Below, in pieces: positions 30,901 through 56,994 of a DNA stretch of 64,000 nt; the stretch's first letter is position 1, and the number at the start of each line of letters is the position of its first letter. The translations under genes and the position numbers were made by a program. The DNA comes from an uncultured Alphaproteobacteria bacterium (GTDB taxonomy: Bacteria > Pseudomonadota > Alphaproteobacteria > Rhizobiales > Methyloligellaceae). Under the pieces are notes generated by a model. It was given only the letters and a program-made list of their open reading frames with translations. It did not search any database and was not told the DNA's origin. The stretch spans positions 26,990 through 90,989 of the forward strand of contig CAWGVA010000010.1 in the NCBI GenBank assembly GCA_963825835.1. The letters run 5' to 3'.

Positions 30901-30955
30901 GGCAATTCTCCCTCGATGTGCCCGCGTGTCCCTCCCGGTTACACCCTCAGGCCGC

Positions 30956-32700: not shown

Positions 32701-32784
32701 CACGCCGTGGGAGGAAGTGGGCCTAACCCCCGGCGGACACCTCGCCGCCCATGCTTTCGGCTCCTCGTCTAGAGCAACGAATGA

Positions 32785-32852: not shown

Positions 32853-32924
32853 GTCGAAGGGGGTGGCGGTGCCGGGGGTACACCATAAAAAGGTACCATC
32901 AGCCCACCCCCCATGCGTGGGTCC
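32853..32924 (+). repeat. Island hairpin element, copy E2 (tandem with E1)
   Basis: GTCGAA-GGGGGTGGCGGTGCCGGGGGTACACCATAAAAAGGTACCATCAGCCCACCCCCCATGCGTGGGTCC. Tail ATGCGTG is shared with copy A. Confidence 0.6.
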
Positions 32925-32959
32925 TGCCGCACCGCCAAAGCCAAGTGCCAGTTCATAAG

Positions 32960-33739
32960 TTACCGACCTGTGCCCTTCTCAAATCGGCGATCATTTTCGG
33001 AAGCAACGGCCAACTGCGCTGGCTTGAGCGTTTCGCGCGGCTTAGTGGCGAATGCAAACAAAGCGTTGACGAGAAACGAGGCCACAATGCTGCACAAAGC
33101 CATGATCACATAATGATGGCCGGAGAAGCCTTGTCGCGCGATATTCGTTAGCTTGATTGCTCCGGGAATAGACTCACCTCGTGAGCTCAAGGCACTCAAC
33201 GAAGCCTGCCAAATCCAATCGGCAAAGCGCAGAAGCGCGGCGTAGGTCTCGGGCACGAGGGCGTTGAATGTAAAGAGTGCCACTGCCAGCACCACCGTCG
33301 CCGGCACGCTAACCAGGGCTATGGCAATCCGTTGAAGCCCGCTGCGCGTTCCTCCGAGGACCCAGTTTAAGGGGATGCCGACAAAAATGGTGGCGATCAC
33401 GATCGCTGGGATGGAAAGCACGACGTGAGTCATGTTTACGCGTTCGCGCAGGTGATTAACCGCTATTTGTCCCCAATAGGAACCGGAGACTAACGAATCC
33501 AACCAGTTTGTTATGGAGCGCCCGATATCAAAAGCCAAGGTGATGACTGGCTCTAACTCTCGATCATAAACGACAGAGAGGACCATCATCCCGAGCATCA
33601 GTGCATAGCTTATGCCGCCAATGCCGATTGAGACGATGAGGCGTCGGACCCACGCGAGCATTGCATTCCCCCAACCGCTGGCTCTAACGCCCTCGGTCAA
33701 ATCCCATTCTATTATTGTTCGGCTCTCAACAAGCTGCAC
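32960..33739 (-). CDS. Hypothetical polytopic membrane protein
   Basis: 259-aa ORF with about 6 hydrophobic helices. No family recognised. Confidence 0.55.
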   Translation of the reverse strand: MQLVESRTIIEWDLTEGVRASGWGNAMLAWVRRLIVSIGIGGISYALMLGMMVLSVVYDRELEPVITLAFDIGRSITNWLDSLVSGSYWGQIAVNHLRERVNMTHVVLSIPAIVIATIFVGIPLNWVLGGTRSGLQRIAIALVSVPATVVLAVALFTFNALVPETYAALLRFADWIWQASLSALSSRGESIPGAIKLTNIARQGFSGHHYVIMALCSIVASFLVNALFAFATKPRETLKPAQLAVASENDRRFEKGTGR

Positions 33740-33827
33740 TGCACGGGCCGCTTGGAACTTTTAGACCCAGCGACAGTTCACGGCTCAAATTCGACGAAAC
33801 AGCCACTGAAAAAAGCGGGTCGTGATT

Positions 33828-33971
33828 ATGCCTCTAAAGAAAGGTTCGTCACACAAGACGATTAGCTCAAACATCAAAACTGAGATGAAGGCAGGCAAGC
33901 CACAGAAGCAGGCGGTCGCCATCGCTTTAAAAAAGGCCGGCAAGAGCAAAAAGTCCAAACGGTCGAAGTGA
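33828..33971 (+). CDS. Small basic protein (DUF6496-like), below the ORF-track length cutoff
   Basis: Read directly as [47 protein letters not shown]. The [12 protein letters not shown] core is typical of that small-protein family. Confidence 0.5.
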
Positions 33972-34066
33972 TCAGCACCGCGACCGACTAGAGTTTGTGC
34001 GACTGACTAGACGTACTCGCATTGCCAGTGGGCGCGAGATGACACCTGGTTCTCCATGGGTCGCCA

Positions 34067-34303
34067 TCACCGTTTTGTGTGCCACCGATCGTACCGTGCT
34101 TGCAGACGCGGTGCGATCAGCCAGGCTATAGGCGCGGCTAGAATAAGGCTCGCTACGACCACGACGGGAATCCAAATATACGCGTTGGTGCTGAGTGCGG
34201 GCACATTCAACACCGTAATTATTGCCGCGCCGAAAATGACTGCATTCGTCATTGAGTAAATCAGAACAGCGATTCTCAGTCGGTTTCTCATTCCGGCTTG
34301 CAC
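34067..34303 (-). CDS. Small hypothetical membrane protein (2 TM)
   Basis: 78 aa and hydrophobic. In tandem with 34310..34498. Confidence 0.4.
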   Translation of the reverse strand: MQAGMRNRLRIAVLIYSMTNAVIFGAAIITVLNVPALSTNAYIWIPVVVVASLILAAPIAWLIAPRLQARYDRWHTKR

Positions 34304-34309
34304 TACTCT

Positions 34310-34498
34310 TCACCCGCGCGCTCGGAGCGGCCAAATCTCGCTTACGACTATCGCGAGCAAAGATGCCGCTATTGAAAGCCACGCCAATTCAATCCAACGC
34401 ACGTGACCCGTAATCATTGCGAATACGGCTCCGATGGTCGCTATGAGGAGTGCCAAAGCCGCAATCGCGCACAGTATGAAAATGAGAGATCTGATCAA
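34310..34498 (-). CDS. Small hypothetical membrane protein (2 TM)
   Basis: 62 aa and hydrophobic. Ends 6 nt before the next ORF start. Confidence 0.4.
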   Translation of the reverse strand: MIRSLIFILCAIAALALLIATIGAVFAMITGHVRWIELAWLSIAASLLAIVVSEIWPLRARG

Positions 34499-35188
34499 CT
34501 CTAACTCCGCAGCGTCGTATTCACCAACAGCAGGGGTGCGGTTTGGGGGGCCAACAGCAGCGAACTAAAACACCCGATCCTATCGCGGTTTGAATCGTCT
34601 TGGCGGTGCACAGGATAGCCAAACGCCGGTTAGCACGGGGACTCTTACCGCCGCCTTGTTGGTTCTCTGTCTGTCCAGCCTCGTCGGCGTTTCTCGTCTG
34701 CAAGCCAACCGAGTTCCCGAGCTTTCTCAGTTGCTCGCCTTAGCCATGAGAGTGAACTCTTGGGAAGTGACCCGAGCCTTATGATCATCCTGGCCAAAGC
34801 CACTGAGGAAACATAGGCCACGCGGTATCAAACCAAATCTTGTTCGTAGGCCGTGCCGGGCATCTTCACTATTATCCTACGAAGGGTCTCCTGTACCTCG
34901 ATGTGAAGATCGGGAGCCTTGGACATGGCTGGCACTTTCATGGCCCCCAATTTCAACGCTGGGAGCGGTGCGTCGTCGGGGCCGCCGACGCTATTTCAAA
35001 CGGTCTGTCAGCATCGTAGTTCCGCGTCAGCACCGACCGAAGCCGACGGGCGCAGACCGAATAGACCGCCCAGATTTACGATAGCAGGGGAACGCGGAGA
35101 CGATCACCGCCGTTGTGGTTCTAGCAGCCGCAAGAAGTCGGCTGGGGTACTGGGGATTGTGACGCTCGGGTTAAACGGAGGGTGTAAC

Positions 35189-35296
35189 ATGGCCATCGCC
35201 CCGACAAACAAGCGCGAGGCAGATGAAATGGCACTCAAGCTGTCCTGCTTGCTCGCGTTCATCCTGGTTGGCTTGATCACGGCTGGGGTGCTTTAG
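35189..35296 (+). CDS. Possible 35-aa membrane peptide
   Basis: GGAGGGTGTAAC-ATG and a C-terminal TM (LSCLLAFILVGLITAGVL). Followed by a 10-bp GC hairpin at 35309-35339. Confidence 0.3.
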   Translation: MAIAPTNKREADEMALKLSCLLAFILVGLITAGVL

Positions 35297-35636
35297 ACTC
35301 AAACAGAAAGCCCCGGGGCACTGCATGTCCCCCGGGGCTCTGATTAGGAGTGCGGGTTACCGTGGTCTCCGCCGTTCACCGAAGCGAACTAGAGCGGCCA
35401 CCCCGCCTCACGGTAGATAGCACTGTTCGGTAAGTATGGCTGTGCCCCTGGCGCCACTTCTTCGATCAAAAAACGCGCCGAAGCCGAACGCTTGCGTCAT
35501 GGTCGCCGTCTTTAACGCTAGGCCCGTGTCTGGGTGGGGCCGCCTCAGGCGTGCGAAAATGCCCGTCCGTCCTTACTATGTCGTTACTGGCTTTGGTCTG
35601 CCAACTCGCGATTTAAGCCTAACTCGTTGTTTTTAT

Positions 35637-35712
35637 TGGCGCGCCTGGAAGGGCTCGAACCTCCAACCTACAGATTCGAAGTCTGGTGCTCTATCCGTTG
35701 AGCTACAGGCGC
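35637..35712 (-). tRNA. tRNA-Arg, anticodon read as UCG; atypical (C-U mismatch at the top of the anticodon stem)
   Basis: Minus strand reads GCGCCTG-TA-GCTC-AACGGATA-GAGC-A-CCAGA-CTTCGAA-TCTGT-AGGTT-GGAGG-TTCGAGC-CCTTC-CAGGCGC-G-CCA. 76 nt. Confidence 0.75.
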
Positions 35713-35736
35713 CTCGCCGCGCGGCAGCCTATCAGC

Positions 35737-36186
35737 CTATTGGCAATAGTCCCAATAGCCGCGCGTCATTGACGGATCGGCCCAGTACCAGCAGAGATTG
35801 GGTGCCGGCGCCACTGCCGAATAGGCCGCCGCCCCGAGAACGGTTCCGAGCGCCACGCCGCCGATGACGGTGCCGTAGTAAGGCTGCTTGTTCCAATGCC
35901 GGTAGGGTCTGACCACCACGACCTTTTTGTTGTTCCAGTTCTTGTTGTTGTTCCAGTTCTTGTTGTTGTGCCAATTCTTATCCTTGCCGGCGAGGACGAT
36001 TACGCCGTCGGCCTTCGCCGATTCGCTCGGCAGAGCCTGCTTGGCCGACCCCGCTGCCGTCGTGTCGCTTGGGACGCCGGCCGCAACCGGGCCGATGGGC
36101 ATGGCAATGCCGAGAGCAAGGCCGAGTATAAGCGCAGCAATGGCAAAGGGACCGAAGCGTCTCGAGTTCAGTTCGTCATACCCCAT
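35737..36186 (-). CDS. Exported low-complexity protein with (K/N)NW(N/H)NN repeats
   Basis: GGAGGA SD before the ATG at 36186 and a signal/TM segment. Contains KDKNWHNNKNWNNNKNWNNKK and a Gly-zipper-like VIGGVALGTVLGAAAY. C-terminus is CWYWADPSMTRGYWDYCQ. Confidence 0.55.
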   Translation of the reverse strand: MGYDELNSRRFGPFAIAALILGLALGIAMPIGPVAAGVPSDTTAAGSAKQALPSESAKADGVIVLAGKDKNWHNNKNWNNNKNWNNKKVVVVRPYRHWNKQPYYGTVIGGVALGTVLGAAAYSAVAPAPNLCWYWADPSMTRGYWDYCQ

Positions 36187-36509
36187 GATGTTCCTCCGGG
36201 TTGGATGCTTGGCGAGCAACGTAGCTCACCCGAATCTACACTTGGCGACTTAGGTTCGGCAGTTGGGGGCAGCTCCCCGCTACCGAGACTGAGCTACGAG
36301 GCGAGCAAGGCGACATTGTGATGGCGGGGAACGGCTCAAATCGGGGCGCCCGGATTTTGGGCGGCAGGGTCAAGCGACCGGGGCAAGACCGGAAATCTCG
36401 CTTTACCTCCCTTAAGACCTTGCTACAGTGGAGTTATCGAACCATTGCCGCGGCCAAGCATGTGGGAGCCTGAAGTAGGCGGGTGCCGCGGACATAAGGG
36501 CTGAACATC

Positions 36510-42679: not shown

Positions 42680-44194
<1,515 letters not shown>

Positions 44195-44202
44195 GCTTCC
44201 GC

Positions 44203-45144
44203 CTACTCCACGCCGAGCTTCTTGATCTGGTCGATGATGCCCGGTTCCAGCGTGATCGCCTGCTGGATCTCGCGGCTGCCGTCGGTGGGCTTCCCCTTGC
44301 GGCTCTTCACCACGCCAACGCCGACCAGGGCTGACGCATCGTTCTCGTGGATCTTCAACGCCGCCGTGAAGTCTTCCATGGCGTGATCGAGATCGTTCTT
44401 CAGCACATAGATCCAGCCGCGATCGATATAGCCTTTGGGCTTATCCGGCTCCAACTTGATCACTTCCGAGTAGTCGGCGGCGGCGTGTTCATAGTCCTTC
44501 TTCTGGCGGAACAATTCGGCGCGCTTCGAATAACCTTGCGTGGAGTTCGGGTCGAGCTTGACCTTCTGGTCGAGCTCCGTGATAGCGCGGTCGAAATCGC
44601 CCTTTTGCCCGAAGACGACACCGCGCAGCATGTAGAAGTCGCCGCGGCTCGCGTCGAGGCGGATGGCCTCATCGAGATCGGCGATCGACTTGTCGTAGTC
44701 CTTCTTGGCCTCGTAGGCCGCTGCGCGCATGAAATAACTGTTCGGCTGCTTGGGATCGAGCGCCACGGCCTCGTTCATCTCGGTGAGAGCCGCATCGAAA
44801 TCGCCGGTGGCGGCAAGACCGATCGCGCGGTTGCCATGCGCGGCGATGAGCTTGTCGGTGTCCTTCGACCCTGAGGCGAGGAAGGCGGCGCAGGCGTCGA
44901 GCACCTCTTTGATCGAGCCTTTGCCGGTGAAGCAGGGATTGTCCTCCACGCTTGCGGCAGATCCAGGGGAGGCCGCGGCTGCGGCGGCCGGGTCGGCCGG
45001 GACGAGGACTTGCGGCTTCGCCTGATCGGCGGCAGCTTGCGGATCTTCGGCAAACACGGGGGTAGCTAAACCTGCTCCAAGCGCCAGCGTTGCGGCGACG
45101 ATCGCTGCCCGCGACACGACGGCTTTACGCCCAAACACATGCAT
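44203..45144 (-). CDS. Exported tetratricopeptide-repeat protein
   Basis: GGAGGAAGGA SD before the ATG at 45144 and a signal peptide. Multiple 34-aa TPR units (..[14 protein letters not shown].. pattern). Confidence 0.75.
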
Positions 45145-45330
45145 TCCTTCCTCCATAGACCTAGAATTTCTGAAATTTGGCCTTGTTAAAGCTTCACCCG
45201 GGCGCCGCGTCAATTGAACTTCTCTTCATGAAGCCAATGGCCGCCGCCGCTCACCCTTGGCGGAAATCGAGGGTATAAGAGCGCTGAAGGCCGCCAGGCT
45301 GGCCGCCGTCGGGGGCAATGGGAGGCTTCA

Positions 45331-45759
45331 ATGTCGATGCAGGCCATGCTGATGCCGGTATTCGCGCAAGTCGCGCTGACCTTCGTGCTGCTGTTCTGGA
45401 TGCAGTTCTCGCGGATGCGGGCCATTCGCCGGGGCCAAGTTCCCGCCCATTCGATCGCGCTCAGAGAGCCTAACTGGCCGCCGCGCGTGACCCAGATCGG
45501 CAACGCCTACCACAATCAGCTCGAGACGCCGCTCCTTTTCTATGTGCTGATCCTGCTCGCGCTGGTGACGAGCACCGCTGATTCCATCCTTTTCGTGCTC
45601 AGCTGGCTGTTCGTCGCCTCGCGCTTCGTGCACGCCTATATCCACCTGACCAGCAACCGGATCGACCGGCGGGCGCCGGTCTTTCTCGTCGGCGCCATCG
45701 GCCTTGCCCTCATGTGGATCATCGTTGCCGCCCGCCTGACCATCGCCTTCACCGGATGA
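45331..45759 (+). CDS. MAPEG family membrane protein
   Basis: 142 aa with 4 TM. HNQLETPLLFYV and ASRFVHAYIH motifs are typical of bacterial MAPEG. Confidence 0.75.
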   Translation: MSMQAMLMPVFAQVALTFVLLFWMQFSRMRAIRRGQVPAHSIALREPNWPPRVTQIGNAYHNQLETPLLFYVLILLALVTSTADSILFVLSWLFVASRFVHAYIHLTSNRIDRRAPVFLVGAIGLALMWIIVAARLTIAFTG

Positions 45760-47051
45760 CCCCAGCGGCTCGCGCCAGCGCGGCAATAGAGGTTCTCGCC
45801 GATATCGCGCTGCGCAAGCGGCCGGCGGCGGACGCGCTCAAGGATTGGGGGCTCGCCCACCGCTTTGCCGGGTCAGGCGACCGGGGCGCCATCGGCAATC
45901 TTGTGTTCGATGCGCTGCGCCGGCGCGCCTCCAGTGCCTACGCCATGGGGGAAGACAGCCCGCGGGTGCTCGTGCTCCGCACCCTCGTTTCAGGTTGGGG
46001 CACGGCCCCGGAGGCGGTGGAGGCGCTCGCCGATGGCAGCCGCTTTGCGCCGGCGCCGCTCACGCCGCCGGAACTTGAGGGCCTCAAGCGCGAACTCTCG
46101 GCCGATGCACCGGCCTTCATACGAGGCGATTATCCGGAATGGCTCGATCCGCAACTCCAACTGGCCTTCGGAGCGCAGGCGGCGGAAGAGGGGGCAGCGC
46201 TCGCCACCCGTGCGCCCGTAGACCTTCGCGTCAACACGTTGAAGGCCACGCGGGACAAGGTGCTGCATGCGCTCCGCCGCTTCGATGCGGCGCCCACGCC
46301 CTACTCACCGCTTGGCGTGCGCATTGCGGCGGGCATCGGCCCAAGCCGAAGCCCCCATGTCGAGGCAGAGCCGGCGCATGGCAAGGGCTGGTACGAGGTG
46401 CAGGACGAAGCGTCACAAATCGCGACGCGTCTCTCGGGGGCGCGACCGAAGGAGCAGATCCTCGATTTCTGTGCCGGGGCCGGCGGCAAGACGCTCGCCC
46501 TCGCTGCCGCCATGGAGAATACCGGCCAGCTCTATGCCTATGATGCCGACCGCATGCGGCTTCGGCCGATCTTCGAGCGCCTGAAGCGGGCAGGGGTGCG
46601 CAACGTTCAGGTGCTCGATCCGGGCAACACCGAAGCTCTCGCGGACCTCGAAGGCAAGATGGACCGGGTGATCGTCGACGCGCCCTGCACCGGGTCAGGC
46701 GTGTGGCGGCGGCGCCCCGACGCGAAATGGCGGTTATCTCCGCAAATGCTCGAAGCGAGGCTTGCCGAGCAGCGTGCCGTACTTGATCAGGCAGCACGTC
46801 TGGTGAAGCCCGGAGGCCGGCTTCTCTACATCACCTGCTCGGTGCTGCCGTCCGAGAACCGCGACCAGGTCGACGCTCTTATCAACCGGTTTCCCGAGTT
46901 CGGCATCGTGCCGTGGGCTCCGCTGTGGGAGCAGGCGGCATTCTCTGCTGCACCGCCGCAATCGGCCGACCGGTCGGCTGAAACGTTGTTGATGACCCCC
47001 CGCAGTTTCGGCACCGATGGTTTTTTCCTGTCCATGCTGCAGCGCAAATGA
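45756..47051 (+). CDS. RsmB/NOP-family SAM-dependent RNA (cytosine-C5) methyltransferase
   Basis: DFCAGAGGKT SAM motif, DAPCTGSG and TCS catalytic Cys motifs. ATG overlaps the MAPEG stop (ATGA). Confidence 0.85.
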   Translation: MTPAARASAAIEVLADIALRKRPAADALKDWGLAHRFAGSGDRGAIGNLVFDALRRRASSAYAMGEDSPRVLVLRTLVSGWGTAPEAVEALADGSRFAPAPLTPPELEGLKRELSADAPAFIRGDYPEWLDPQLQLAFGAQAAEEGAALATRAPVDLRVNTLKATRDKVLHALRRFDAAPTPYSPLGVRIAAGIGPSRSPHVEAEPAHGKGWYEVQDEASQIATRLSGARPKEQILDFCAGAGGKTLALAAAMENTGQLYAYDADRMRLRPIFERLKRAGVRNVQVLDPGNTEALADLEGKMDRVIVDAPCTGSGVWRRRPDAKWRLSPQMLEARLAEQRAVLDQAARLVKPGGRLLYITCSVLPSENRDQVDALINRFPEFGIVPWAPLWEQAAFSAAPPQSADRSAETLLMTPRSFGTDGFFLSMLQRK

Positions 47052-47242
47052 GATCCGCCAAAGGTCGCTTCGAGCGGTCGATCGGCGCCACGGCCACGGT
47101 CCCAAAAAATTTGGGACGCGACGCCATTACCTCTTGAAATCAACAAGAGAGTCGCTGAAATGACTCGCGCTTTTGACGGACGCAGAAAAGGCGGTCGGCG
47201 CCTGGATCGTCCATCGAGTCACCGAAGGGGGATGTAGTCCCG

Positions 47243-48568
47243 ATGAAGATGAATTTGCTTCTCGGCGAGGCTGAAGAGCCACCCAGTCGCCAAACGGCGA
47301 CACCTCAAGTTTCCACCAAACCACATCGTCTCATAAGCCCCCACTCGCAAGCGCTCCCCTCGCTGGGAGCCGTTGTCACGCGGCTCGAGCGCTTTCCGAT
47401 CGGACCGGCCACCCGCGCCTTTCGCAAGCGGTTCTATCCGGAGGTTGAAGCCACTGAGTGGAATGACTGGCGCTGGCAGGCGCGTAAGCGCATCCGCACG
47501 CTCGCAGAGCTCGAGCGGCTGTTCGTGCTGTCCGACGACGAGCGCGATGCCGTGGTGCGCCATCAAGGATCGCTGCCGCTCGGCATCACGCCGTACTATG
47601 CGAGCCTGATGAGCCGCGACGACGCGCTCGAGCCGTTGCGACGAACCCATATTCCCGTCGGCACCGAATATCTCAAGGCGCCCGGCGAGGCCGACGATCC
47701 TCTCGGCGAGGATGGCCACACGGCTGTGCCAGGTCTCGTGCACCGCTATCCGGACCGGGTGCTGTTTCTCGCCACCGGCTTCTGCTCGACCTATTGCCGC
47801 TATTGCACGCGTTCCCGCATGGTCGGTGAGCCAGGCGGCGAATATTCCTTCAGCCGCCCGCAATGGGAGGAGGCGCTCGACTACATCGCCGCACATCCCG
47901 AAATTCGCGACGTGCTGATCTCGGGCGGCGATCCGCTGACCTTGTCCGATGAGCGGCTCGACTATCTGCTCGGGCGCTTGCGCGCCATCCGCCATGTCGA
48001 GTTCGTACGGCTCGGCACCAAGGTGCCGGTGGTGCTGCCCATGAGGGTCACCCGCTCGCTCACCAGGATTCTGAAGAAGCATCATCCGCTGTGGGTGAGC
48101 CTGCACTTCACCCATCCTGCCGAGCTCTCGCCCGAGGTTACCGAGGCCTGCGCGCGGCTTGCCGACGCCGGCATTCCGCTCGGCAGCCAGACGGTGTTGC
48201 TCAAGGACATCAACGACAGCGTCGACACTCTAAAGACGCTCTATCACGGGCTGCTCAAGCGGCGCGTGCGGCCGTACTACCTCTATCAATGCGACCCGAT
48301 CTCGGGCTCGTCGCATTTCCGTACCTCCGTCGATAAGGGCCTGGAGATCATGCAAGGCTTGCGCGGCCATACCACCGGCTACGCGGTGCCGACCTATGTG
48401 ATCGACGCGCCAGGCGGCGGCGGCAAGATCCCGCTTCTGCCCGACTATGTGCAGGGCCGCGACGGCGACGACCTGATCCTGAAAAACTTCGAGGGCAAGA
48501 TCTATCGCTACACCGATCCGCAAGGGACGGTGGGAGCGGATCGGACGGCAAGCGCCGAAAATCTGTGA
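47243..48568 (+). CDS. kamA: KamA-family radical SAM lysine 2,3-aminomutase
   Basis: CSTYCRYCTRS (CxxxCxxC) cluster motif, SGGDPL, and a conserved C-terminal region ..GHTTGYAVPTYVIDAPGGGGKIP. Confidence 0.85.
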   Translation: MKMNLLLGEAEEPPSRQTATPQVSTKPHRLISPHSQALPSLGAVVTRLERFPIGPATRAFRKRFYPEVEATEWNDWRWQARKRIRTLAELERLFVLSDDERDAVVRHQGSLPLGITPYYASLMSRDDALEPLRRTHIPVGTEYLKAPGEADDPLGEDGHTAVPGLVHRYPDRVLFLATGFCSTYCRYCTRSRMVGEPGGEYSFSRPQWEEALDYIAAHPEIRDVLISGGDPLTLSDERLDYLLGRLRAIRHVEFVRLGTKVPVVLPMRVTRSLTRILKKHHPLWVSLHFTHPAELSPEVTEACARLADAGIPLGSQTVLLKDINDSVDTLKTLYHGLLKRRVRPYYLYQCDPISGSSHFRTSVDKGLEIMQGLRGHTTGYAVPTYVIDAPGGGGKIPLLPDYVQGRDGDDLILKNFEGKIYRYTDPQGTVGADRTASAENL

Positions 48569-49596
48569 TGCGTGTCGCTCTCGTCTACGACTTGCGCGAC
48601 GACTATCGCGCGCTCGGCTTCTCTGAGGAGGAGGTGGCCGAGTTCGACAACGTCGACACCATCGACCAGCTCGATGGCGCGTTGCGAGCGCTTGGCTGCG
48701 AGGTCGACCGCGTTGGCCGCGGGCAGGTGCTTGCCGCGCGGCTTGCCGCGGGGATGCGCTTCGACCTCGTGTTTTCCATTGCGGAGGGCGTGAAGGGTCG
48801 CTCGCGTGAGGCGCAGGTGCCTGCGCTCTGCGAGCTGTTCGATCAGCCTTATCTGTTGTCGGATCCGCTCACATCCGCCGTATGCCACGACAAGGCCGTG
48901 GCCAAGCGGCTGGTGCGGGCAGCCGGCGTGCCGACGCCTGCCTTCATGGTGGCGGCCTCGGACGCGAGCGAGCTTCGTGGCTGGAGCGAGTTTCCCGCTT
49001 TCGTCAAGCCGATCGCGGAAGGGACCGGCAAAGGCTGCGAGTCCGCCTCTGTGGTGCACACGCCGGAGGAGCTTGCCAGTGCCGGAACGAAGTTGCTGCA
49101 GCGCTATCGTCAGCCGGTGCTGGTCGAGACGTACTTGCCAGGCCGCGAGTTCACCGTCGGCATCGTCGGCAACGGCAGGGATGCGACGGTGCTTGGGGTC
49201 TGCGAGATCCTGCTCAAAGAGGACGCCGAGGCCAATGTCTACTCGCTGCGCAACAAGGAACTTTGCGAGGAGCTGGTGATCTACGCCCGCGCCGACGATG
49301 GGGAAGCCTGGGCCGCCGCGCGGCAGGCGCTTGCCGCTTACCAAGCGCTTGAGTGCCGGGACGCGGCGCGCATCGACTTTCGCTCCAATGCTTTCGGCGA
49401 GCCTTATTTCCTTGAAGCCAACCCGCTTGCCGGGCTGCATCCGCATCATTCGGACCTTCCCATTCTCGCCGCGCAGAACGGCGTTACTTACGTCGAGCTG
49501 ATCGGCATGATCCTCGACGCCGGCTTGGCGCGTTACGGGCTTGCCCGAGACGGCCTCAAGCGGACAGGCAAGGAGCAGGAGCGGAGACGCGCCTGA
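48568..49596 (+). CDS. ATP-grasp enzyme, D-alanine--D-alanine ligase family (paralogue 1)
   Basis: Ddl-like layout: MRVALVYD..., DKAVAKRLVRAAGVPTP, FVKPIAEGTGKG, and ARIDFR...YFLEANPLAG. Abuts the kamA stop (GTGATG). Confidence 0.8.
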   Translation: MRVALVYDLRDDYRALGFSEEEVAEFDNVDTIDQLDGALRALGCEVDRVGRGQVLAARLAAGMRFDLVFSIAEGVKGRSREAQVPALCELFDQPYLLSDPLTSAVCHDKAVAKRLVRAAGVPTPAFMVAASDASELRGWSEFPAFVKPIAEGTGKGCESASVVHTPEELASAGTKLLQRYRQPVLVETYLPGREFTVGIVGNGRDATVLGVCEILLKEDAEANVYSLRNKELCEELVIYARADDGEAWAAARQALAAYQALECRDAARIDFRSNAFGEPYFLEANPLAGLHPHHSDLPILAAQNGVTYVELIGMILDAGLARYGLARDGLKRTGKEQERRRA

Positions 49597-50585
49597 TGGC
49601 GCTCAAGCCAGGCGGCTTCATCCCCGTCGTGCATGCCGCGACGCGCCAGCGTCCTGACGAGATCGACACGCTGCTCTCCGCCGAAGCCGTGGCTCACGCG
49701 CTCGGCGAGCTCGGCTTCGCCACCGAGATCGTCGCCGTCGATCTCGACCTCAACCATTTCCTGGCCTTGAAGCGCCTGGATCCGCTTCTCGTGTTCAACC
49801 TGGTCGACGCGGTGCGCGGCGACGGCAGGCTTGCCCCGGTCATCCCCTCGATGCTCGATGCTGTGGGGCTTCCCTTTACCGGCGCCCATTCCGACGCTTG
49901 GCTCGAGACGCTGTCAAAGGTCGCGACCAAGCTGAAGCTTAAGCGTGAAGGCCTGCCCACGCCCGGCTTCTCGGTTGACGGCGCACGCCTCGATCCTGAT
50001 GCAAAGGTCATCGTCAAGGCGGTGTGGGAGCATGGCTCGCTCGGGCTCGACGAGGGCTCGGTGGTAAAGGGCGCTGACGCTGCCCGCGTCATCGCCGACC
50101 GCGTTGCGCGGTTCGGCACCGAGCATTTTGCGGAAAGTTTCGTCGAGGGGCGCGAGTTCAACCTCTCGCTGCTTGAGGAGCGTGGCCGCGCCAGCGTGTT
50201 GCCGATCGCCGAGATCGTGTTCGAGGATTGGCGTGAGGGGCGCCCGCGCATCGTCGGCTATGACGCCAAATGGACGAGCGACAGCGAGGCCTATGCCGGC
50301 ACGCCGCGCCGCTTCGGGCTGGAAAAGACCGAGTCGGCGCTTGCCGCGAACCTGGAGAAGCTCGCCAAATCCTGCTGGGACCTGTTCGGGCTTGCCGGCT
50401 ATGCCCGCGTCGACTTCCGCGTCGATCGCGAAGGCAGACCAACGATCCTCGAAGTTAACGTCAATCCTTGCCTCAACCCCGATGCAGGCTTTGCCGCGGC
50501 GGCGGCTCAAGGCGGGCTCTCCTACCGCGACCTCATCGGCAGCATTATCGATGCCGCGCCGCGAGCCTTGCCAGCCATCGCCTGA
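49596..50585 (+). CDS. ATP-grasp enzyme, D-alanine--D-alanine ligase family (paralogue 2)
   Basis: SKVATKLKLKREGLPTP, and ARVDFRVDREGRPTILEVNVNPCL. Start overlaps the previous stop (TGATG). Confidence 0.8.
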   Translation: MALKPGGFIPVVHAATRQRPDEIDTLLSAEAVAHALGELGFATEIVAVDLDLNHFLALKRLDPLLVFNLVDAVRGDGRLAPVIPSMLDAVGLPFTGAHSDAWLETLSKVATKLKLKREGLPTPGFSVDGARLDPDAKVIVKAVWEHGSLGLDEGSVVKGADAARVIADRVARFGTEHFAESFVEGREFNLSLLEERGRASVLPIAEIVFEDWREGRPRIVGYDAKWTSDSEAYAGTPRRFGLEKTESALAANLEKLAKSCWDLFGLAGYARVDFRVDREGRPTILEVNVNPCLNPDAGFAAAAAQGGLSYRDLIGSIIDAAPRALPAIA

Positions 50586-50603
50586 CATGCTTCGCATCTA
50601 GTC

Positions 50604-52865
50604 ATGTTGCGCATCCGCAAAGTGGCCGACGCCACCACGGCGCCGAACCGCGCCGCGATCGAGGCGGCGCAAAAGATCATGCGCGAGCAGTTCCCGGCGA
50701 TGCCCGATTACGACATCGCCAAGCTCCCCGAGCAGCTCGCCAATCCGCTCAAGCATCGCTTCGTCGCGCGGCTGTTCGTGGCCGAGAATGCCCGCGACCA
50801 GACCCTTGGCCTGGCGCTTCTGCTGCACGCGCCGGACATCGGCTTTTCCTATTTGGAGATTATCTCCACCGCTCTTGGCCGCACGGGGAGGGGCATTGGC
50901 GCCACGCTTTATGAGCGGGTGCGGGAAGAGGCGCGGGCGCTCGGCACGCAGCTCTATTTCGAGAGCCTGCCCGACGATCCGGCGCTCAGCCCCAACCCCG
51001 AGATCAGAGCCAACAATGCCAACCGGCTCAAATTCTACGAGCGCTACGGTGCGCGCCCGATCATCAACACCGCCTATGAGACGCCGGTGACGCCAGGCAC
51101 CACCGACCCACCCTACCTGATGCTCGATCCGCTCGGCTCAAACGATCTGCCGAGCCGCGACAAAGTGCAAAGGGTCGTGCGCGCCATACTCGAGCGGAAA
51201 TATGGGCTGGGCGCCACCTATGTGCAGTTGGTGGTGGACTCGATCCAGGACGATCCGATTCGCTTGCGCGAGCCGCGCTACACGAAGCGCCCGCAAAAGG
51301 CGGAGGTCCGTGCGTTCGACGAGCCACGCATCGCGCTCGCGCTCAACGACGACCACACCATCCACCATGTGCAGGAGCGCGGCTATGTCGAGGCGCCGGT
51401 GCGCATCCGCTCGATCATGGCCGAATTGAATGCCTCAGGCCTGTTCGAGCGGGTGCCGACCAAGCGCTTCTCCGACCGCCACATCCGCGCCGTGCATGAC
51501 GGGCGGCTCGTCGATTACATCCGCAAGGCCTGCCTCATCGCCGGCCCCAAGAAGTCGATCTATCCTTACGTGTTCCCGACGCGGAACCCGGCGCGGGCGC
51601 CGAAGGACGAGACGGTGCTCGCCGGCTATTACTGCATCGACACGTTCACGCCGCTCAATCTCAACGCCTATCTCGCCGCGCGCTCGGCGGTCGATTGCGC
51701 ACTGACCGCGGCGGAGAAGGTGCTGGAGGGGGCGGACCTCGCCTACGCGCTGGTGCGCCCGCCTGGGCACCACGCCGAGACCCGCACCTTCGGCGGCTTT
51801 TGCTATTTCAACAATGCGGCGATCGCCGCCAACATGCTCTCGCGCTACGGCCGTGTCGCCATGCTCGACATCGACTATCACCACGGCAACGGCCAGCAGG
51901 AAATCTTCTATACGCGCTCCGATGTGCTCACCGTGTCGATCCACGGTCATCCGAGCTTCGCCTATCCGTATTTCACCGGGTTCCGTGACGAGACCGGGAT
52001 CGGCCCAGGCGCCGGCTACAATCTCAATCTGCCGCTGCCTGAGCACATCACGCCGGAGCAGCACCGGAACGCGGTCGCGGAAGCGCTTCGCCGCATTCGC
52101 CGCTTCGCGCCGGCCTTCCTCGTGGTGTCGGCCGGTTTCGATACGGCTAGAGGCGATCCGACCGGTACCTGGTCCAATCGGGCACGCGACTTCGAGCAGC
52201 TCGGCCATATGCTCGGCGAGCAGGGCTACTCGACGCTCGTGGTGCAGGAGGGCGGCTATCGCGTGCGCACGCTCGGCACTAATGTGCGGAATTTCTTCGC
52301 AGGTCTGGTCAACGGCCATTCTGCCGCGCGCCAAGTGGCGCCGGCGCTCGCGCGAAGCGCCGGTCAGCGTCCGCCCGCGCGGGACGGGCTCGAATGGCGG
52401 AGCGCGGTGATGGCCGACGATGTGGGCCGCGTGCGCTCGCTTGTCGCTTCCACCGGGTTCTTCAATGCGGCTGAGGTCGACGTCGCGGCGGATCTCGTCA
52501 CAGAGCGCCTCGCCAAGGGGATTCGCTCAGGCTACCACTTCATTCTCGCCGAGCGCGGCAGCGGGCTCGTGGCCTATGCCTGCTACGGCCCGATCGAGGG
52601 CACGCAAGGCTCATTCGATCTCTACTGGATTGCCGTGGCACCTGAGGAGCAGCGCAAGGGCCTGGGGCCGCAGGTATTCGCCCGGGCCGAGAACGCCATG
52701 CGCAAAGCCGGCGCCAAGAAGGTCTATGTCGATACCTCCTCATCCGACCGCTATGCGGGCACGCGCGGTTTCTATCAGCGCATGGGCTTCGCCGAGGATG
52801 CGCGGTTGCCGGACTTCTACGGGCCCGGCGACAGCAAAGTCATCTATGTGAAGGAGCTGTTGTGA
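50604..52865 (+). CDS. Tri-domain protein: GNAT-like N-terminus, histone-deacetylase/acetylpolyamine-amidohydrolase domain, GNAT C-terminus
   Basis: N-terminal RTGRGIGATLYERV (acetyl-CoA motif A-like). Central VRPPGHHA, DIDYHHGNG and SAGFD HDAC motifs. C-terminal VAPEEQRKGLG...FYQRMGF GNAT motifs. Confidence 0.8.
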   Translation: MLRIRKVADATTAPNRAAIEAAQKIMREQFPAMPDYDIAKLPEQLANPLKHRFVARLFVAENARDQTLGLALLLHAPDIGFSYLEIISTALGRTGRGIGATLYERVREEARALGTQLYFESLPDDPALSPNPEIRANNANRLKFYERYGARPIINTAYETPVTPGTTDPPYLMLDPLGSNDLPSRDKVQRVVRAILERKYGLGATYVQLVVDSIQDDPIRLREPRYTKRPQKAEVRAFDEPRIALALNDDHTIHHVQERGYVEAPVRIRSIMAELNASGLFERVPTKRFSDRHIRAVHDGRLVDYIRKACLIAGPKKSIYPYVFPTRNPARAPKDETVLAGYYCIDTFTPLNLNAYLAARSAVDCALTAAEKVLEGADLAYALVRPPGHHAETRTFGGFCYFNNAAIAANMLSRYGRVAMLDIDYHHGNGQQEIFYTRSDVLTVSIHGHPSFAYPYFTGFRDETGIGPGAGYNLNLPLPEHITPEQHRNAVAEALRRIRRFAPAFLVVSAGFDTARGDPTGTWSNRARDFEQLGHMLGEQGYSTLVVQEGGYRVRTLGTNVRNFFAGLVNGHSAARQVAPALARSAGQRPPARDGLEWRSAVMADDVGRVRSLVASTGFFNAAEVDVAADLVTERLAKGIRSGYHFILAERGSGLVAYACYGPIEGTQGSFDLYWIAVAPEEQRKGLGPQVFARAENAMRKAGAKKVYVDTSSSDRYAGTRGFYQRMGFAEDARLPDFYGPGDSKVIYVKELL

Positions 52866-53159
52866 TGCGGCAGAGTCCTACTGCATCGACAAAGCAGGCC
52901 TCCGCCTAACCAGCGGGACTCCAAGCCAGGCGACCGCGGCATCCGGGGTCGTTGGGCGTCCTCTTTTGCGCGCCACTCGAACTCGACTTCAACGGCACAT
53001 CCAAGCGCCCGAGCAAGATGCAGCACGGCTTTCCAGGCGTCATTGGCTGCAACTCCCTGGATCGAGAAACCAAGATTTCCAAGTGGCTGGAAGCCCTCAT
53101 CGGTCTTGGAGCCCTTTTGCACCGGATGGATCGTCGATAGCCTCATATGCGGGCGAGAA

Positions 53160-54172
53160 ATGATGCCAGCGCCATATTCTGCGGATCTCAGCCGAAGGTC
53201 GGCCATCACCCTTTTGGGCGCCAGCGTGGGGCTGCTCGCCATCTGGCGCCGTGCCGTCTCGTTGGCGCTGGCCGAGGGGACTCTGAACCTTGACGGCGAC
53301 CTCGGCAGTCTCGAGCCCGGCCAATTCATCTGGGCCCCGGAACGCGCCCCTGAAGGTCCGGTTGCCATCATCGTCTCGATCCCGAAGCAGCTCGTCTTCG
53401 TCTATCGCAACGGCATCCTGATCGGCGTCTCCACCTGCTCGACCAGCAAGCCGGGCCATTCGACGCCTGCCGGCGTGTTCACCATCCTCGACAAGGCCAA
53501 GGTGCACACCTCGGCCACCTATGGCGAGCCGATGCCGGACATGGAGAAACTCACCTGGAAGGGCATCGCGCTCCATGTCGGCGATCTGCCGGGCTATCCC
53601 GACTCGCACGGCTGCGTGCACCTGCCACCTGATTTCGCCGACGATCTCTACGCCATCACCCAAATCGGGACGCCGGTCATCCTTGCAGGAGGCCACACCG
53701 ATCCGGCGTCAGTGGCCGATCCGGGACCGATCCTCGGCACCACCGCGAGAGAGGAGATCGAAGCCAAGATCGGGGGCAAGCCCATCCCGTCGTTGAGCCC
53801 GAATGCGGTCATGTCGATCCTCGTCTCGCGCGGCGACATGAAGATTTATGTGCTGCAGAAGCCGAGATCGTGGCCGAGGGCGCCGCCATCATCAAGGACC
53901 CGTCGGAGCCGATCGGCTCAAATGTCTTCGTGTGGCAGGGCGGCAACACGCACGGCTCCAGCTGGGAGGGCATGGGCTTCCATGCCTGCCCAAGCGTTCC
54001 CACCGCGCCTGACACCAACGTGCTTCAACGCATCGATGGCGCGCCCGACGTGATGGATGTGATCAGGGATCGCATCAAGCCGGGGACGGTGCTGGTGACC
54101 ACCGATCTATCGGCCTCGCCGGAGACGCGCAGCGGCAGCGGCTTCACGGTGATGGACGCGCCGACGAGTTGA
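53160..54172 (+). pseudogene. L,D-transpeptidase (YkuD domain) with an apparent -1/+2 frameshift near 53859
   Basis: Tat-like leader (SRRSAITLLGASV) and YkuD core ...GIALHVGDLPGYPDSHGCVHLP. After ..KIYVLQ the protein-like sequence continues in another frame (AEIVAEGAAIIKDPSEPIGSNVFVW...) to the stop at 54172. Confidence 0.65.
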
Positions 54173-54180
54173 GATGGCGC

Positions 54181-55206
54181 TCAGGCAGGCACGGCCTCGA
54201 TAACGGAGAGGCCTGAGCTTGTGGCCGTGACTTTCGACAGCGCAAGCTTTGCTTGCGTGAGCAGCCGCTCGAGCTCCTGAAGCGTACGCGCCCGGCCGCC
54301 GGTGATGACCATCATATGCAGGTCGGTCATCACGGCGCTCGGATCGTCGTGAGCTTGCTCGGGGAGCAGGCGCTCGATGATCGCGAGCTTGGCACGCGCC
54401 GGCATGGCATCGCGGCAGCTTCCCAGGATGGCGCGGGCCGCCACATCGTCCCAATGCTGGAGCACGCTTTTCAGCACATAGAGGTCGGCCTCGACGGGGA
54501 TCTCGGCGAGGAAGTCCCCGCCGGCGAGGGTCACGCGATCGAACACGCCATGGGACGTGAGAAACTTCTTGGCGCCGATGATGGTCTCGGGCAGGTCGAA
54601 GAGGATGCCTCGCACGTCGGGATGCGCTTGAAGGATCGCGGCGAGCAGCCCGCCATGACCGCCGCCGATATCGGCGACGCGGCCGACGCCCGCGAGATCT
54701 AGCGCCTCTATGATCGGGCCGGCTCCCGCGAAGGTCTCGCTCGCGAGATAGGCTGCAAAGATGTCACCGCCGCGAAAGTTCTCGTTCCGCCACGCCCACA
54801 CATCGGTGCCGAACACATGCTCGAAGGCAGGTTCGCCGGTTTGCAGGGTCGAGACGAGGTCGGCCCAGGGGCGCCAATATTGCTCGACCACGATCATGAC
54901 CTTCTCGCCGAGCCGAGAGGGCGAACCGAGCTTGAGGGAGCGGCCGAGGTCCGTTAGCGCGAAGCTGCCATCGGAACGCTCCTCGCAGATCCCGATGGTC
55001 ACCAGCCCCCTCAGAAAACGGAGGAGGTGCGGCGTGGAAAGGCCGAACTCTGCCGCCAACGCCGGCGCGGTCCAGGGCCGCGCGCCCATACGGTCGGGCA
55101 GCCCAAGCTTCACCGCCGCATAGACAAGCGCCGAGGCGTGATACGCCTCGATCGCGGCGCGCAGGCGCTCCTCCGCGTGCTTTTCCCCAGTCTCATTCAT
55201 GACCAA
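54181..55206 (-). CDS. Class I SAM-dependent O-methyltransferase (family 2, with N-terminal dimerisation/wHTH domain)
   Basis: VADIGGGHGGLL SAM-binding motif. 341 aa with COMT/ASMT-like architecture. Confidence 0.8.
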   Translation of the reverse strand: MVMNETGEKHAEERLRAAIEAYHASALVYAAVKLGLPDRMGARPWTAPALAAEFGLSTPHLLRFLRGLVTIGICEERSDGSFALTDLGRSLKLGSPSRLGEKVMIVVEQYWRPWADLVSTLQTGEPAFEHVFGTDVWAWRNENFRGGDIFAAYLASETFAGAGPIIEALDLAGVGRVADIGGGHGGLLAAILQAHPDVRGILFDLPETIIGAKKFLTSHGVFDRVTLAGGDFLAEIPVEADLYVLKSVLQHWDDVAARAILGSCRDAMPARAKLAIIERLLPEQAHDDPSAVMTDLHMMVITGGRARTLQELERLLTQAKLALSKVTATSSGLSVIEAVPA

Positions 55207-55213
55207 TCATGTC

Positions 55214-55377
55214 ATGGCGGGGCTCGTCCCGGCCATCCACGTCTTTTTCATCCCTCCCCTCCAGGGGAGGGTGGCGAGCCCGGCTTGCCGGGATCGCCGG
55301 GTGGGGTGATCACACGAGCCCCCACCCCGACGACGCCTTAAACGAGGCGTCGTCGGACCTCCCCGCAAGGGGGAGGT
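55214..55377. repeat. REP/RIME-like intergenic mosaic of five hairpins
   Basis: Hairpins: ATGGCGGGG..CCCGGCCAT, CCCTCCCC-tcca-GGGGAGGG, CCCGG-cttg-CCGGG, CCGACGACGCC-ttaaacga-GGCGTCGTCGG and ACCTCCCC-gcaag-GGGGAGGT. Produces the spurious ...MAGTSPAMT ORF. Confidence 0.6.
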
Positions 55378-55437
55378 ATGCAGAGAGCCTAGCCGCAGGG
55401 CCATTGCCGACTCGGGCGCTATTCGCTAACCAACGCC

Positions 55438-56994
55438 ATGACGGACCATCCGGACAAGGTGCTGATCGTCGATTTCGGCGCGCAATACACCCAGCTCATC
55501 GCGCGGCGGGTGCGGGAAGCGGGCGTCTATTCGGAGATCGTGCCCTTCGACAAGGCCGAGGCTGCGCTCAAGCCGGTTCTCCCCAAGGCTATCATTCTCT
55601 CCGGCGGGCCGGCATCGGTGCACGAGACCGGCACGCCGCAGCTGTCGGCAGCCATCGCCAATTCAGGCGTGCCCATCCTCGGCATCTGCTATGGCGAGCA
55701 GGCGATGGTGGCTGCCCTTGGCGGCCAGGTGGAAGGCGGTCACACCCGCGAGTTCGGCCGTGCCGAACTCGAGATCACCGGCGACACGCCGCTGTTCCAC
55801 GATGTGTGGCGGCCGGGAACGCGGGCGCCGGTGTGGATGAGCCATGGCGATCGCGTCAGCAAACTTCCCGAGGGCTTCCGCGCTGTGGCAGTGTCAAACG
55901 GCGCGCCGTTCGCGGCCATCGCTGACGACGCCCGCAAGCTTTATGGCGTACAGTTCCATCCGGAGGTCGTGCATACGCCTGACGGTGCCAAACTCATCGC
56001 CAATTTCGTGCATGCAATAGCAGGCTGCCCCGGCGATTGGTCGATGGCGCAGTTCCGCGCCTCCGAAATCGCGCGCATCAGGAGTCAGGTCGGGGAGGGC
56101 CGCGTGATCTGCGGGCTCTCGGGCGGGGTCGACTCTGCCGTCGCGGCGCTGCTCATCCACGAAGCGATCGGCGATCAGCTCACCTGCATCTTCGTCGATC
56201 ATGGGCTGCTCCGCGAGAACGAGGCGCGTGAGGTGGTCGATCTCTTTCGCGGCCACTACAACATTCCGCTGATCGCCGTTGATGCTGGCGCGCGCTTCCT
56301 CGCCGGGCTTCGTGGCGTCACCGACCCTGAGGAGAAGCGCAAGACCATCGGCCGCCTGTTCGTTGAGGTGTTCGAGAACGAAGCCGACAAGCTCGGCAAG
56401 GTCGATTTCCTCGCGCAAGGCACGCTCTATCCCGACGTGATCGAGAGCGTGTCCTTCTCTGGCGGACCGTCGGCGACCATCAAGTCGCACCATAATGTGG
56501 GCGGCCTGCCTGAGCGTATGCGGCTCAAGCTGATCGAGCCGTTGCGCGAGTTGTTCAAGGACGAGGTGAGGGCGCTCGGCCGCGAGCTTGGGTTGCCGCC
56601 GGTCTTCGTCAACCGCCATCCCTTCCCGGGGCCCGGGCTCGCCATCCGCGTGCCCGGCGAAGTGACCGAGGAGAAGCTCGCCATCCTGCGGCGCGCCGAC
56701 GCCATCTATCTCGACGAGATCAGGAAGGCCGGCCTCTACGACACGATCTGGCAGGCTTTCGCCGTGCTGCTCCCGGTGCGCACCGTCGGCGTCATGGGCG
56801 ATGCGCGCACCTACGACTATGTATGCGCGCTTCGCGCCGTCACCTCGACCGACGGCATGACCGCCGACTACTACGATTTCTCCCACGACTTTTTGGGCCA
56901 CGCGGCGCGGCGCATCATCAACGAGGTGCGCGGCATCAACCGCGTCGTCTACGACATCACCTCCAAGCCGCCGGGCACCATCGAGTGGGAGTAG
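55438..56994 (+). CDS. guaA: Glutamine-hydrolysing GMP synthase
   Basis: GATase domain (ILGICYGEQ), ATP-PPase SGGVDSAV P-loop and C-terminal ..KPPGTIEWE. Confidence 0.95.

Follow-up and report, generated by a model that had tools for sequence, protein, structure and literature searches.

So far, only a handful of roles for beta-lysine have been described among bacteria and archaea: in the osmolyte N-epsilon-acetyl-beta-lysine, in the modification of EF-P, in lysine fermentation, and in a few antibiotics. The osmolyte pathway leading to N-acetylglutaminylglutamine amide (NAGGN; Ngg/AsnO) uses a GNAT acetyltransferase and an ATP-grasp enzyme to make an N-acetylated dipeptide solute with neither a ribosome nor a nonribosomal peptide synthetase (NRPS), and protect-ligate-deprotect schemes are familiar from the N-acetyl intermediates of arginine biosynthesis, from mycothiol (MshB/MshC/MshD), and from the N-acetyl intermediates of bialaphos. 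Here we describe an operon in which a KamA-family lysine 2,3-aminomutase is encoded together with two ATP-grasp ligases of the D-alanine-D-alanine ligase (Ddl) fold and a three-domain GNAT-HDAC-GNAT protein. It lies in a stretch of 64,000 nucleotides, referred to below as the window, from an uncultured alphaproteobacterium of the Methyloligellaceae (GCA_963825835.1, contig CAWGVA010000010.1, positions 26,990 to 90,989 of the forward strand).

The gene set is apparently a widespread variant of beta-lysine metabolism that has not been described before; no description of it was found in the searchable full-text literature. We suggest that the operon may encode a self-contained route to an intracellular N-acetylated di- or tripeptide, or other conjugate, of beta-lysine, a reading built on sequence comparison to which we would give an even chance.

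Organization of the operon

The operon consists of four open reading frames (ORFs), all on the + strand. Coordinates here and below are those of the window, lengths are in amino acids (aa), and g2 and g3 denote the types of ligase represented by genes 2 and 3.

47243-48568, + strand: gene 1, 441 aa, KamA-family radical-SAM/pyridoxal phosphate (PLP) lysine 2,3-aminomutase
47273-47287, + strand: E-E-P-P-S motif, aa 11-15 of gene 1, within a variable N-terminal extension
48565-49596, + strand: gene 2, 343 aa, Ddl-fold ATP-grasp ligase, g2 type
49596-50585, + strand: gene 3, 329 aa, Ddl-fold ATP-grasp ligase, g3 type
50586-50603, + strand: spacer between genes 3 and 4, 18 nucleotides, near-copy of the start of gene 4
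50604-52865, + strand: gene 4, 753 aa, GNAT-HDAC-GNAT
50604-51248, + strand: gene 4 domain 1, GCN5-like GNAT, aa 1 to about 215
51387-52304, + strand: gene 4 domain 2, HDAC-family zinc deacetylase, aa 262-567
52371-52856, + strand: gene 4 domain 3, small GNAT, aa about 590 to 751

These coordinates confirm those of a first-pass annotation of the same DNA, which had described four co-oriented genes with overlapping or abutting junctions followed by an 18-nucleotide gap; the ORFs and junction sequences read just so. The junction of genes 1 and 2 is GTGATG (48565-48570), where the start of gene 2, either GTG at 48565 or ATG at 48568, overlaps the stop of gene 1. That of genes 2 and 3 is TGATG (49594-49598), with one base common to the gene 3 ATG and the gene 2 stop.

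Conservation of the gene set

Neighborhood conservation was assessed in two reciprocal scans. The first, seeded with gene 4, used one genome per species and yielded 80 loci, whose neighbors were identified by tblastn with the window proteins; 46 of these were well flanked (at least 4.5 kb on both sides). The second, seeded with gene 3 and run on metagenomes, yielded 21 well-flanked loci. In the first scan, KamA, g2, g3 and a small GNAT stood beside the N-terminal GNAT and deacetylase portion of gene 4 (N-GNAT-HDAC) at 22-23 of the 46 loci, and at 18 to about 22 of the remainder (about 40-50% of the 46) N-GNAT-HDAC had none of these partners at the locus. In the second, KamA accompanied g3 at 19 of the 21 loci, g2 at 19, the small GNAT at 20, and N-GNAT-HDAC at 10. 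The counts of both scans thus define a core of KamA, g2, g3 and a small GNAT of the type represented by Dde_3044 (see below); N-GNAT-deacetylase is an accessory module, found beside about half of the cores.

This alters the picture given by the first-pass annotation, which had taken the four genes as one functional unit and had proposed a neighborhood analysis seeded with the tri-domain protein. The genes are indeed co-conserved, and co-inheritance of a unit is supported, but the unit comprises KamA, the two ATP-grasps and the small GNAT, and so includes only the C-terminal domain of gene 4. An acetylation/deacetylation cycle, also proposed there, does not appear to be intrinsic to the pathway, because the N-GNAT-deacetylase part is optional, accompanying just 10 of 21 cores and often standing alone at its locus.

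At least five gene orders, in both fused and unfused states, are spread across many phyla, and it is this recurrence of the same set that marks the grouping as more than chance. Writing N, H and C for the N-terminal GNAT, the deacetylase and the C-terminal GNAT, with fused domains in parentheses, the gene 4-seeded layouts were KamA-g2-g3-(N-H-C) at 11 loci, KamA-g2-g3-C-(N-H) at 5-6 loci, and also KamA-(N-H)-g2-g3-C, g2-g3-C-KamA-(N-H) and two divergent arrangements; the commonest g3-seeded layouts were KamA-g2-g3-(N-H-C), at nine loci, and plain KamA-g2-g3-GNAT, at eight. The GNAT lies directly 3' of g3 in nearly every layout. Relatives of gene 4 in a representative library are mostly two-domain proteins of about 575 aa (N-GNAT plus HDAC), the three-domain form being rarer. 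The simplest history for the three-domain gene of the window would be insertion of an N-GNAT-HDAC gene between g3 and the GNAT gene, followed by fusion to the GNAT.

The gene set was found in more than ten bacterial lineages, among them Alpha- and Gammaproteobacteria, Desulfobacterota, Dehalococcoidia, Planctomycetota, Bacteroidales and Acidobacteriota. Judged by record titles, carriers include Methyloceanibacter, Hyphomicrobiaceae, Kiloniellaceae, Rhodovulum marinum DSM 18063 (L011, with the full cluster), Woeseia, Woeseiaceae and Nitrococcus, as well as Desulfobacterales, Desulfatiglans, Desulfonatronovibrio, Desulfuromonas, Dehalococcoidia, Planctomycetales, Pirellulaceae, Bacteroidales, Acidobacteriota and Eisenbacteria. 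Marine or saline sites are the source of many of them. The nearest relatives of gene 4 (80-96% identity) belong to Methyloceanibacter, a genus of Hyphomicrobiales; for Methyloceanibacter marginalis the finding is limited to a gene 4 homologue (P0116).

Apart from its cluster-linked form, the two-domain protein with a GCN5-like GNAT and a deacetylase resembling acetylpolyamine amidohydrolases (APAHs) is often found alone, with no conserved neighbor, in very diverse bacteria (L018, L021, L024-L026, L032, L034, L036 and others).

ORF clustering over 160 loci gave no co-conserved transporter, regulator, precursor peptide (of at least 60-70 aa) or alternative deacetylase. The few recurrent neighbors seemed unrelated on sequence inspection (PhoU-like, MarC-like, Fpg, an ABC ATPase), and others reflected lineage synteny.

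Predicted functions of the four proteins

Three assignments can be regarded as established at the level of the sequence: gene 1 is predicted to be an aminomutase of the lysine type, both ligases to be catalytically intact enzymes of the small-molecule Ddl type, and gene 4 to combine two GNAT domains with an intact polyamine-type deacetylase, nearest to the APAHs. Co-inheritance of these genes is established at the same level. The family memberships given by the first-pass annotation (a radical-SAM CxxxCxxC protein of the KamA family; two paralogous ATP-grasp enzymes of D-Ala-D-Ala ligase type; two acetyltransferase-like domains joined to a deacetylase) all hold, on the following evidence.

Gene 1 has the Pfam domains Radical_SAM and LAM_C, matches the L-lysine 2,3-aminomutase of Clostridium subterminale (2A5H; E 1.9e-131, residues 63-427), and passes the KamA family model TIGR00238 (347.7 bits, cut-off 199.2). 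Its radical-SAM motif is CSTYCRYC at aa 181-188 (C181/C185/C188), and R134, D293, D330 and the PLP lysine K337 of 2A5H correspond to R190, D351, D388 and K395; CxxxCxxC and the equivalents of these four residues are kept in 24 of 24 cluster-linked KamA homologues. D293 and D330 bind the epsilon-ammonium group of lysine and are substituted in glutamate 2,3-aminomutase, and their retention makes lysine the likely substrate of gene 1. The protein falls short of every narrower model, namely AblA (TIGR03820, 473.1 bits against a cut-off of 525.4), glutamate 2,3-aminomutase (410 against 650), arginine 2,3-aminomutase (390 against 600) and EpmB (254.4 against 369.3, which is also below its AblA score). 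Relative to 2A5H, it has an N-terminal extension of about 60 aa, no C-terminal zinc-site cysteines, and serine in place of the zinc ligand Cys268, a position that varies across the clade.

The N-terminal extension of KamA is variable apart from a motif of the type [ED][ED]EPP[SGD], which reads EEPPS in the window. Of 55 KamA ORFs linked to the cluster, at least 32, from different phyla, carry this motif. Its codons vary synonymously between loci, and no significant RNA structure was seen there in the window (z -1.33). The motif also occurs at loci with the four-gene core, but the short KamA found in the Desulfuromonas-type layout lacks it. Possible roles are to dock a partner enzyme, to serve as a degron, or to cause an EF-P-dependent pause.

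Genes 2 and 3 both match Pfam Dala_Dala_lig_C (PF07478; E 1.5e-26 and 2e-18), and Ddl and Van ligases are their only matches among PDB sequences. They share 27% identity (E 4e-13), and are not recent duplicates: across loci the g2 and g3 types form two separate orthologous groups, to each of which every cluster contributes a single member. When 31 g2-type and 25 g3-type sequences were mapped onto residues 60-305 of E. coli DdlB, the equivalents of K97, K144, E180, E187, K215, R255, D257, E270 and N272 were invariant in all of them, and because these are the ATP-, Mg- and acyl-phosphate-binding residues, both ligases should be active. The substrate pocket is another matter. In g2, S150 of Ddl is replaced by T or S, Y216 mostly by E, and L282 by D, with S281 kept (invariant in the 31 orthologues); in g3, S150 becomes A or G, Y216 an invariant W, S281 A and L282 G. 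Both types fail the curated Ddl subfamily models (132 bits for g2 and 106 for g3, cut-off about 243). An AlphaFold2 model of g3 had a predicted local distance difference test score (pLDDT) of 84.6, and its best Foldseek matches were D-Ala-D-Ala ligases only, with template modeling (TM) scores of 0.76-0.82. Public names of g2 and g3 homologues are generic (“D-alanine--D-alanine ligase family protein” or “ATP-grasp domain-containing protein”).

In gene 4, the central domain is a strong match to Hist_deacetyl (PF00850, aa 262-567, E 1.2e-75, 255 bits against a cut-off of 27.9) and aligns over its full length with the APAHs 6PHR, 3MEN, 9GKZ and 3Q9B (E 1e-59 to 1e-69), better than with protein deacetylases. 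The motifs PPGHH, DxDxHHGNG, D513 and QEGGY are conserved, and H389/H390, D422/D424/H426, D513 and Y552 are invariant or nearly so in 24 homologues; the tandem His, the Asp-His-Asp zinc site and the catalytic Tyr typical of the HDAC family are thereby all present. The C-terminal GNAT has its Pfam match at aa about 634-732 (PF13508/PF00583, E about 1e-16 to 1e-17), matches 2R7H (DDE_3044 of Desulfovibrio G20, from structural genomics; E 1.2e-40), and is the orthologue of the stand-alone GNAT that directly follows g3 at many loci. It fails the AblB model TIGR03827 (15.4 bits, E 0.009, cut-off 205.1), and its best curated family match, RimI (E 4e-11), is also under the cut-off. The N-terminal GNAT, within the first 250 residues, likewise falls below its Pfam cut-off (21.9 against 27 bits). 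It can nonetheless be taken as a GNAT because a family profile retrieves GNATs from the PDB (E 1.8e-6), because an AlphaFold2 model (pLDDT 90.5) has GCN5/PCAF as its best Foldseek match (probability 1.00, TM about 0.75), and because the CoA-pyrophosphate loop G-x-G-x-G is intact, with conserved glycines G95/G97/G99.

A possible pathway

In the route we favor, KamA would first convert L-lysine to beta-lysine, a step strongly supported by the conserved active-site residues. The Dde_3044-type GNAT (the C-terminal domain of gene 4) might then N-acetylate one of the amino groups from acetyl-CoA; the likely purpose would be to neutralize or protect the amine, so that activation of the carboxyl group does not give a lactam, much as N-acetylation is used in arginine biosynthesis. 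In the third and fourth steps, the two non-redundant Ddl-fold ligases would each form one amide bond by way of an acyl-phosphate. The acidic replacements in g2, at two positions that contact the second substrate in Ddl, would fit a cationic amino acid such as beta-lysine or lysine as nucleophile, and the W/A/G combination in g3 suggests a roomier pocket, suited to a bulkier or acetylated nucleophile. Of the two ligases g3 is the more tightly linked to the GNAT (20 of 21 loci), which suggests that the product of one of these enzymes is the substrate of the other. In this lineage, finally, the N-GNAT-deacetylase part might take an acetyl group off a terminal aminoalkyl chain, and perhaps put one back, the epsilon-N-acetyl group of beta-lysine being one example; this could serve to mature, turn over or recycle the compound. 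APAHs hydrolyze N-acetyl groups on the terminal aminoalkyl chains of small molecules.

The product would then be a peptide or conjugate containing beta-lysine, probably intracellular because no exporter is co-conserved. It could reasonably be guessed to be a compatible solute, or else a compound resembling polyamines or some similar metabolite. The osmolyte role is only one option, since the hosts range from saline sites to what we take, from the site name, to be a freshwater lake.

That freshwater carrier (at least one) is among several points that weigh against the proposed route. A few g3-seeded loci have only g3 and the GNAT, or only KamA, g3 and the GNAT. Around Ddl residue 216 the alignment runs through a flexible loop and could be wrong. 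The order of the steps, the position acetylated and the ligation partners are guesses. Two acetyltransferase domains and a deacetylase in one protein fit no simple linear pathway, and the deacetylase may serve a broader pool of substrates, such as acetylpolyamines, given that half of the cores lack the module and that it is often alone.

A bolder version, which we regard as doubtful though worth stating, is that N-acetylated beta-lysyl peptides made with neither ribosome nor NRPS constitute a new compatible solute or polyamine surrogate in hundreds of genomes of more than ten lineages, that the EEPP[S/G/D] motif docks the enzymes into an assembly on KamA, and that the GNAT-deacetylase-GNAT protein acts as a switch between acetylated (neutral) and deacetylated (cationic) forms.

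If the beta-lysine peptide or conjugate route is correct, beta-amino-acid metabolism would gain a new branch and probably a new metabolite, in a set of organisms that spans marine methylotroph relatives, sulfate reducers, Dehalococcoidia and Planctomycetes. Functions could also be assigned to two large, generically named ligase families, to bacterial GNAT-HDAC fusions, and to the orphan Dde_3044 (2R7H). The existence of a cultured carrier of the full cluster, Rhodovulum marinum DSM 18063, makes the operon directly testable.

Alternative explanations

Three other explanations deserve weighing, each of which fits the fold, linkage and neighbor data less well than the route just described. One possibility is that the two ATP-grasps build an oligo- or polyamide, either from beta-lysine by itself or from beta-lysine in alternation with another amino acid, giving a polycation that the GNAT would cap or detoxify and the deacetylase trim or re-activate; the beta-lysine tail of streptothricin and cyanophycin are the models. 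Two distinct ligases, both predicted to be active, and an APAH-like domain suited to long cationic aminoalkyl substrates are consistent with this, as is the weak likeness of the GNAT profile to nourseothricin/streptothricin acetyltransferases (E 5e-4 to 7e-3), a likeness at the generic GNAT level only. The Ddl fold, however, is known for single turnovers on two small substrates and is not known for processive polymerization, the neighborhood contains neither an exporter nor a granule protein or depolymerase, and the deacetylase is optional; a polymer is improbable.

Another is that KamA and the GNAT make N-epsilon-acetyl-beta-lysine, as AblA and AblB do, that the deacetylase recycles it, and that the ligases are separate, serving for example a cell-wall dipeptide variant. 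An APAH-like domain would be chemically sensible as an N-acetyl-beta-lysine deacetylase, and many hosts are marine or saline. In methanogens, KamA and a GNAT are enough to make this osmolyte, as cited in PMC2412884 (its refs 9, 15 and 68). Here, by contrast, g3 shows the tightest linkage of all to the GNAT (20/21) and to KamA (19/21), which places the ligases inside the unit. They also fall under the Ddl cut-offs with altered substrate residues, the GNAT is not AblB (TIGR03827, 15 against 205 bits), and the cluster occurs in Dehalococcoidia too, whose relatives are not known to have peptidoglycan. We would call this explanation quite improbable. The first-pass annotation had likewise held that the set is not the plain AblAB pair, and the scores bear it out (for AblA, 473 against 525 bits).

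A third possibility is that an ATP-grasp ligates beta-lysine to a protein (EF-P, a ribosomal protein or some other), the GCN5-like GNAT and the HDAC acting as writer and eraser. Structurally, the N-terminal GNAT indeed comes nearest to the protein lysine acetyltransferases GCN5/PCAF, the best curated family of the C-terminal GNAT is RimI, GNAT and HDAC pairs such as AcuA/AcuC regulate proteins, and the conserved Pro-Pro motif of KamA is of a kind that needs EF-P for translation. Against this, the ligases have the Ddl fold and not that of RimK, LysX or TTL, the HDAC domain is nearest to small-molecule polyamine deacetylases, and the EpmB score is well under the cut-off and under the AblA score. 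No target gene such as efp is co-conserved, no efp-like KPGKG gene lies within the window, and so patchy a phylogenetic spread would be odd for a core translation function. Protein modification is very improbable. That the set is not the EF-P modification system had also been the view of the first-pass annotation, and it stands: the EpmB score is 254 against 369, and there is no EpmA or other LysRS-like gene in the operon or among its conserved neighbors.

That the genes are chance neighbors with no shared function is effectively refuted by the overlapping start and stop codons and by the recurrence of the set in many phyla, in several orders and fusion states.

Genomic setting and other features of the window

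The operon has a G+C content of 0.65, the same as its flanks. Upstream are guaB, a TPR protein gene and an RsmB-like methyltransferase gene; downstream are genes for a YkuD transpeptidase and an O-methyltransferase, then guaA. Within the Methyloceanibacter lineage the position of the cluster between rsmB and O-methyltransferase/guaA is constant, and in other taxa the flanks differ. The whole guaB-to-guaA arrangement (42680-56994), in which about 11 kb between the two gua genes hold the TPR gene, the rsmB-like gene, the operon, ykuD and the O-methyltransferase gene, is kept within the same lineage. The gene for the YkuD-type L,D-transpeptidase (53043-54053), which separates the operon from the O-methyltransferase gene, varies in presence and position: it is missing at this site in a 96%-identical locus (L001), placed differently in L083 and duplicated in L090.

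The spacer between genes 3 and 4, CATGCTTCGCATCTAGTC, is approximately a duplicate of the start of gene 4, ATGTTGCGCATC, and forms a 4-codon mini-ORF, ATG CTT CGC ATC TAG (MLRI-stop). The mini-ORF is kept in loci of the Methyloceanibacter lineage (L001, L081-L090); L002 and L011 are without the spacer, gene 4 beginning directly after the g3 stop. A small tandem duplication may have left it behind, or it may help re-initiation.

In the leader (47052-47242) there was no lysine riboswitch and no other Rfam match, and the RNA fold was non-significant (z -1.33). Consensus scans gave no promoter or terminator above background. None of the four proteins matched a PADLOC anti-phage model. A search of plasmids returned only 32%-identical g3 paralogues beside a CapA-family gene on rhizobial plasmids. 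On Sinorhizobium fredii NGR234 plasmid pNGR234a (L161), the g3-like ATP-grasp gene is at 207279-208289, by the CapA-family gene among insertion sequence (IS) elements, and similar genes are found on Rhizobium and Mesorhizobium plasmids. As candidates for the same system these were rejected, being distant and in a CapA-family context.

Elsewhere in the window, a stretch at 23179-36219 has a low G+C content (0.54-0.58, compared with 0.62-0.66 in the rest) and lies between tRNA-Gln(ctg) at 23179-23252 and tRNA-Arg(tcg) at 35637-35712. Next to the tRNA-Gln gene is a weak phage-integrase-like ORF (23419-24135), and the contents include genes for TonB-C and PAP2 proteins, together with several ORFs that match nothing in Pfam; the stretch is probably a genomic island that entered the chromosome at a tRNA gene. 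A weak Rfam match to the Whalefall-1 small RNA (55318-55379, - strand; 25 bits against a gathering threshold of 37, E 0.006), which may be due to chance, falls in the intergenic region that separates the O-methyltransferase gene from guaA.

Comparison with known systems

Among the closest described systems is the AblA/AblB pathway to N-epsilon-acetyl-beta-lysine in methanogens, with the abl-like yodP-kamA of Bacillus subtilis as a further example. Both have a KamA-family aminomutase and a GNAT in one operon and no exporter, and the product, intracellular there, is probably so here. The present operon differs in its two integral Ddl-fold ligases, its Dde_3044-like GNAT and its optional GNAT-HDAC module, and in a KamA that scores under the AblA cut-off, carries an EEPP-bearing N-terminal extension and is without the C-terminal zinc-site cysteines. 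In EF-P beta-lysylation (EpmA/EpmB/EpmC), too, a KamA paralogue provides beta-lysine, which is ligated to an amine with ATP. There the ligation is by EpmA, a LysRS-like, adenylate-forming enzyme, whereas ATP-grasp, acyl-phosphate-type ligases would do it here, with no EpmA at the locus and no linkage to efp.

The individual enzymes invite similar comparisons. Genes 2 and 3 share with D-Ala-D-Ala ligase and VanA the three-domain ATP-grasp fold and the residues that bind ATP, Mg and the transition state, but the positions of S150, Y216, S281 and L282 are replaced in family-specific ways, and the genomic context is beta-lysine rather than mur/ftsQ. The gene 4 deacetylase matches APAHs (3Q9B, 6PHR, 3MEN) over its full length with intact zinc and catalytic residues; unlike them, it is preceded in the same protein by a GCN5-like GNAT and, in this lineage, followed by a second GNAT, and domains of its type are tied to beta-lysine genes at about half of the loci.

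Two other likenesses are of logic more than of parts. With the NAGGN pathway, compared here by description only, the operon shares the combination of a GNAT with an ATP-grasp enzyme; its ATP-grasps are of another subfamily, there is no amidotransferase, and the building block would be beta-lysine made by a radical-SAM enzyme. With the protect-ligate-deprotect schemes of arginine, mycothiol and bialaphos biosynthesis, where the enzyme families are unrelated and the deacetylase is an optional element on our side, what is shared is the logic itself, that of an acetyltransferase, an ATP-dependent ligase and a deacetylase.

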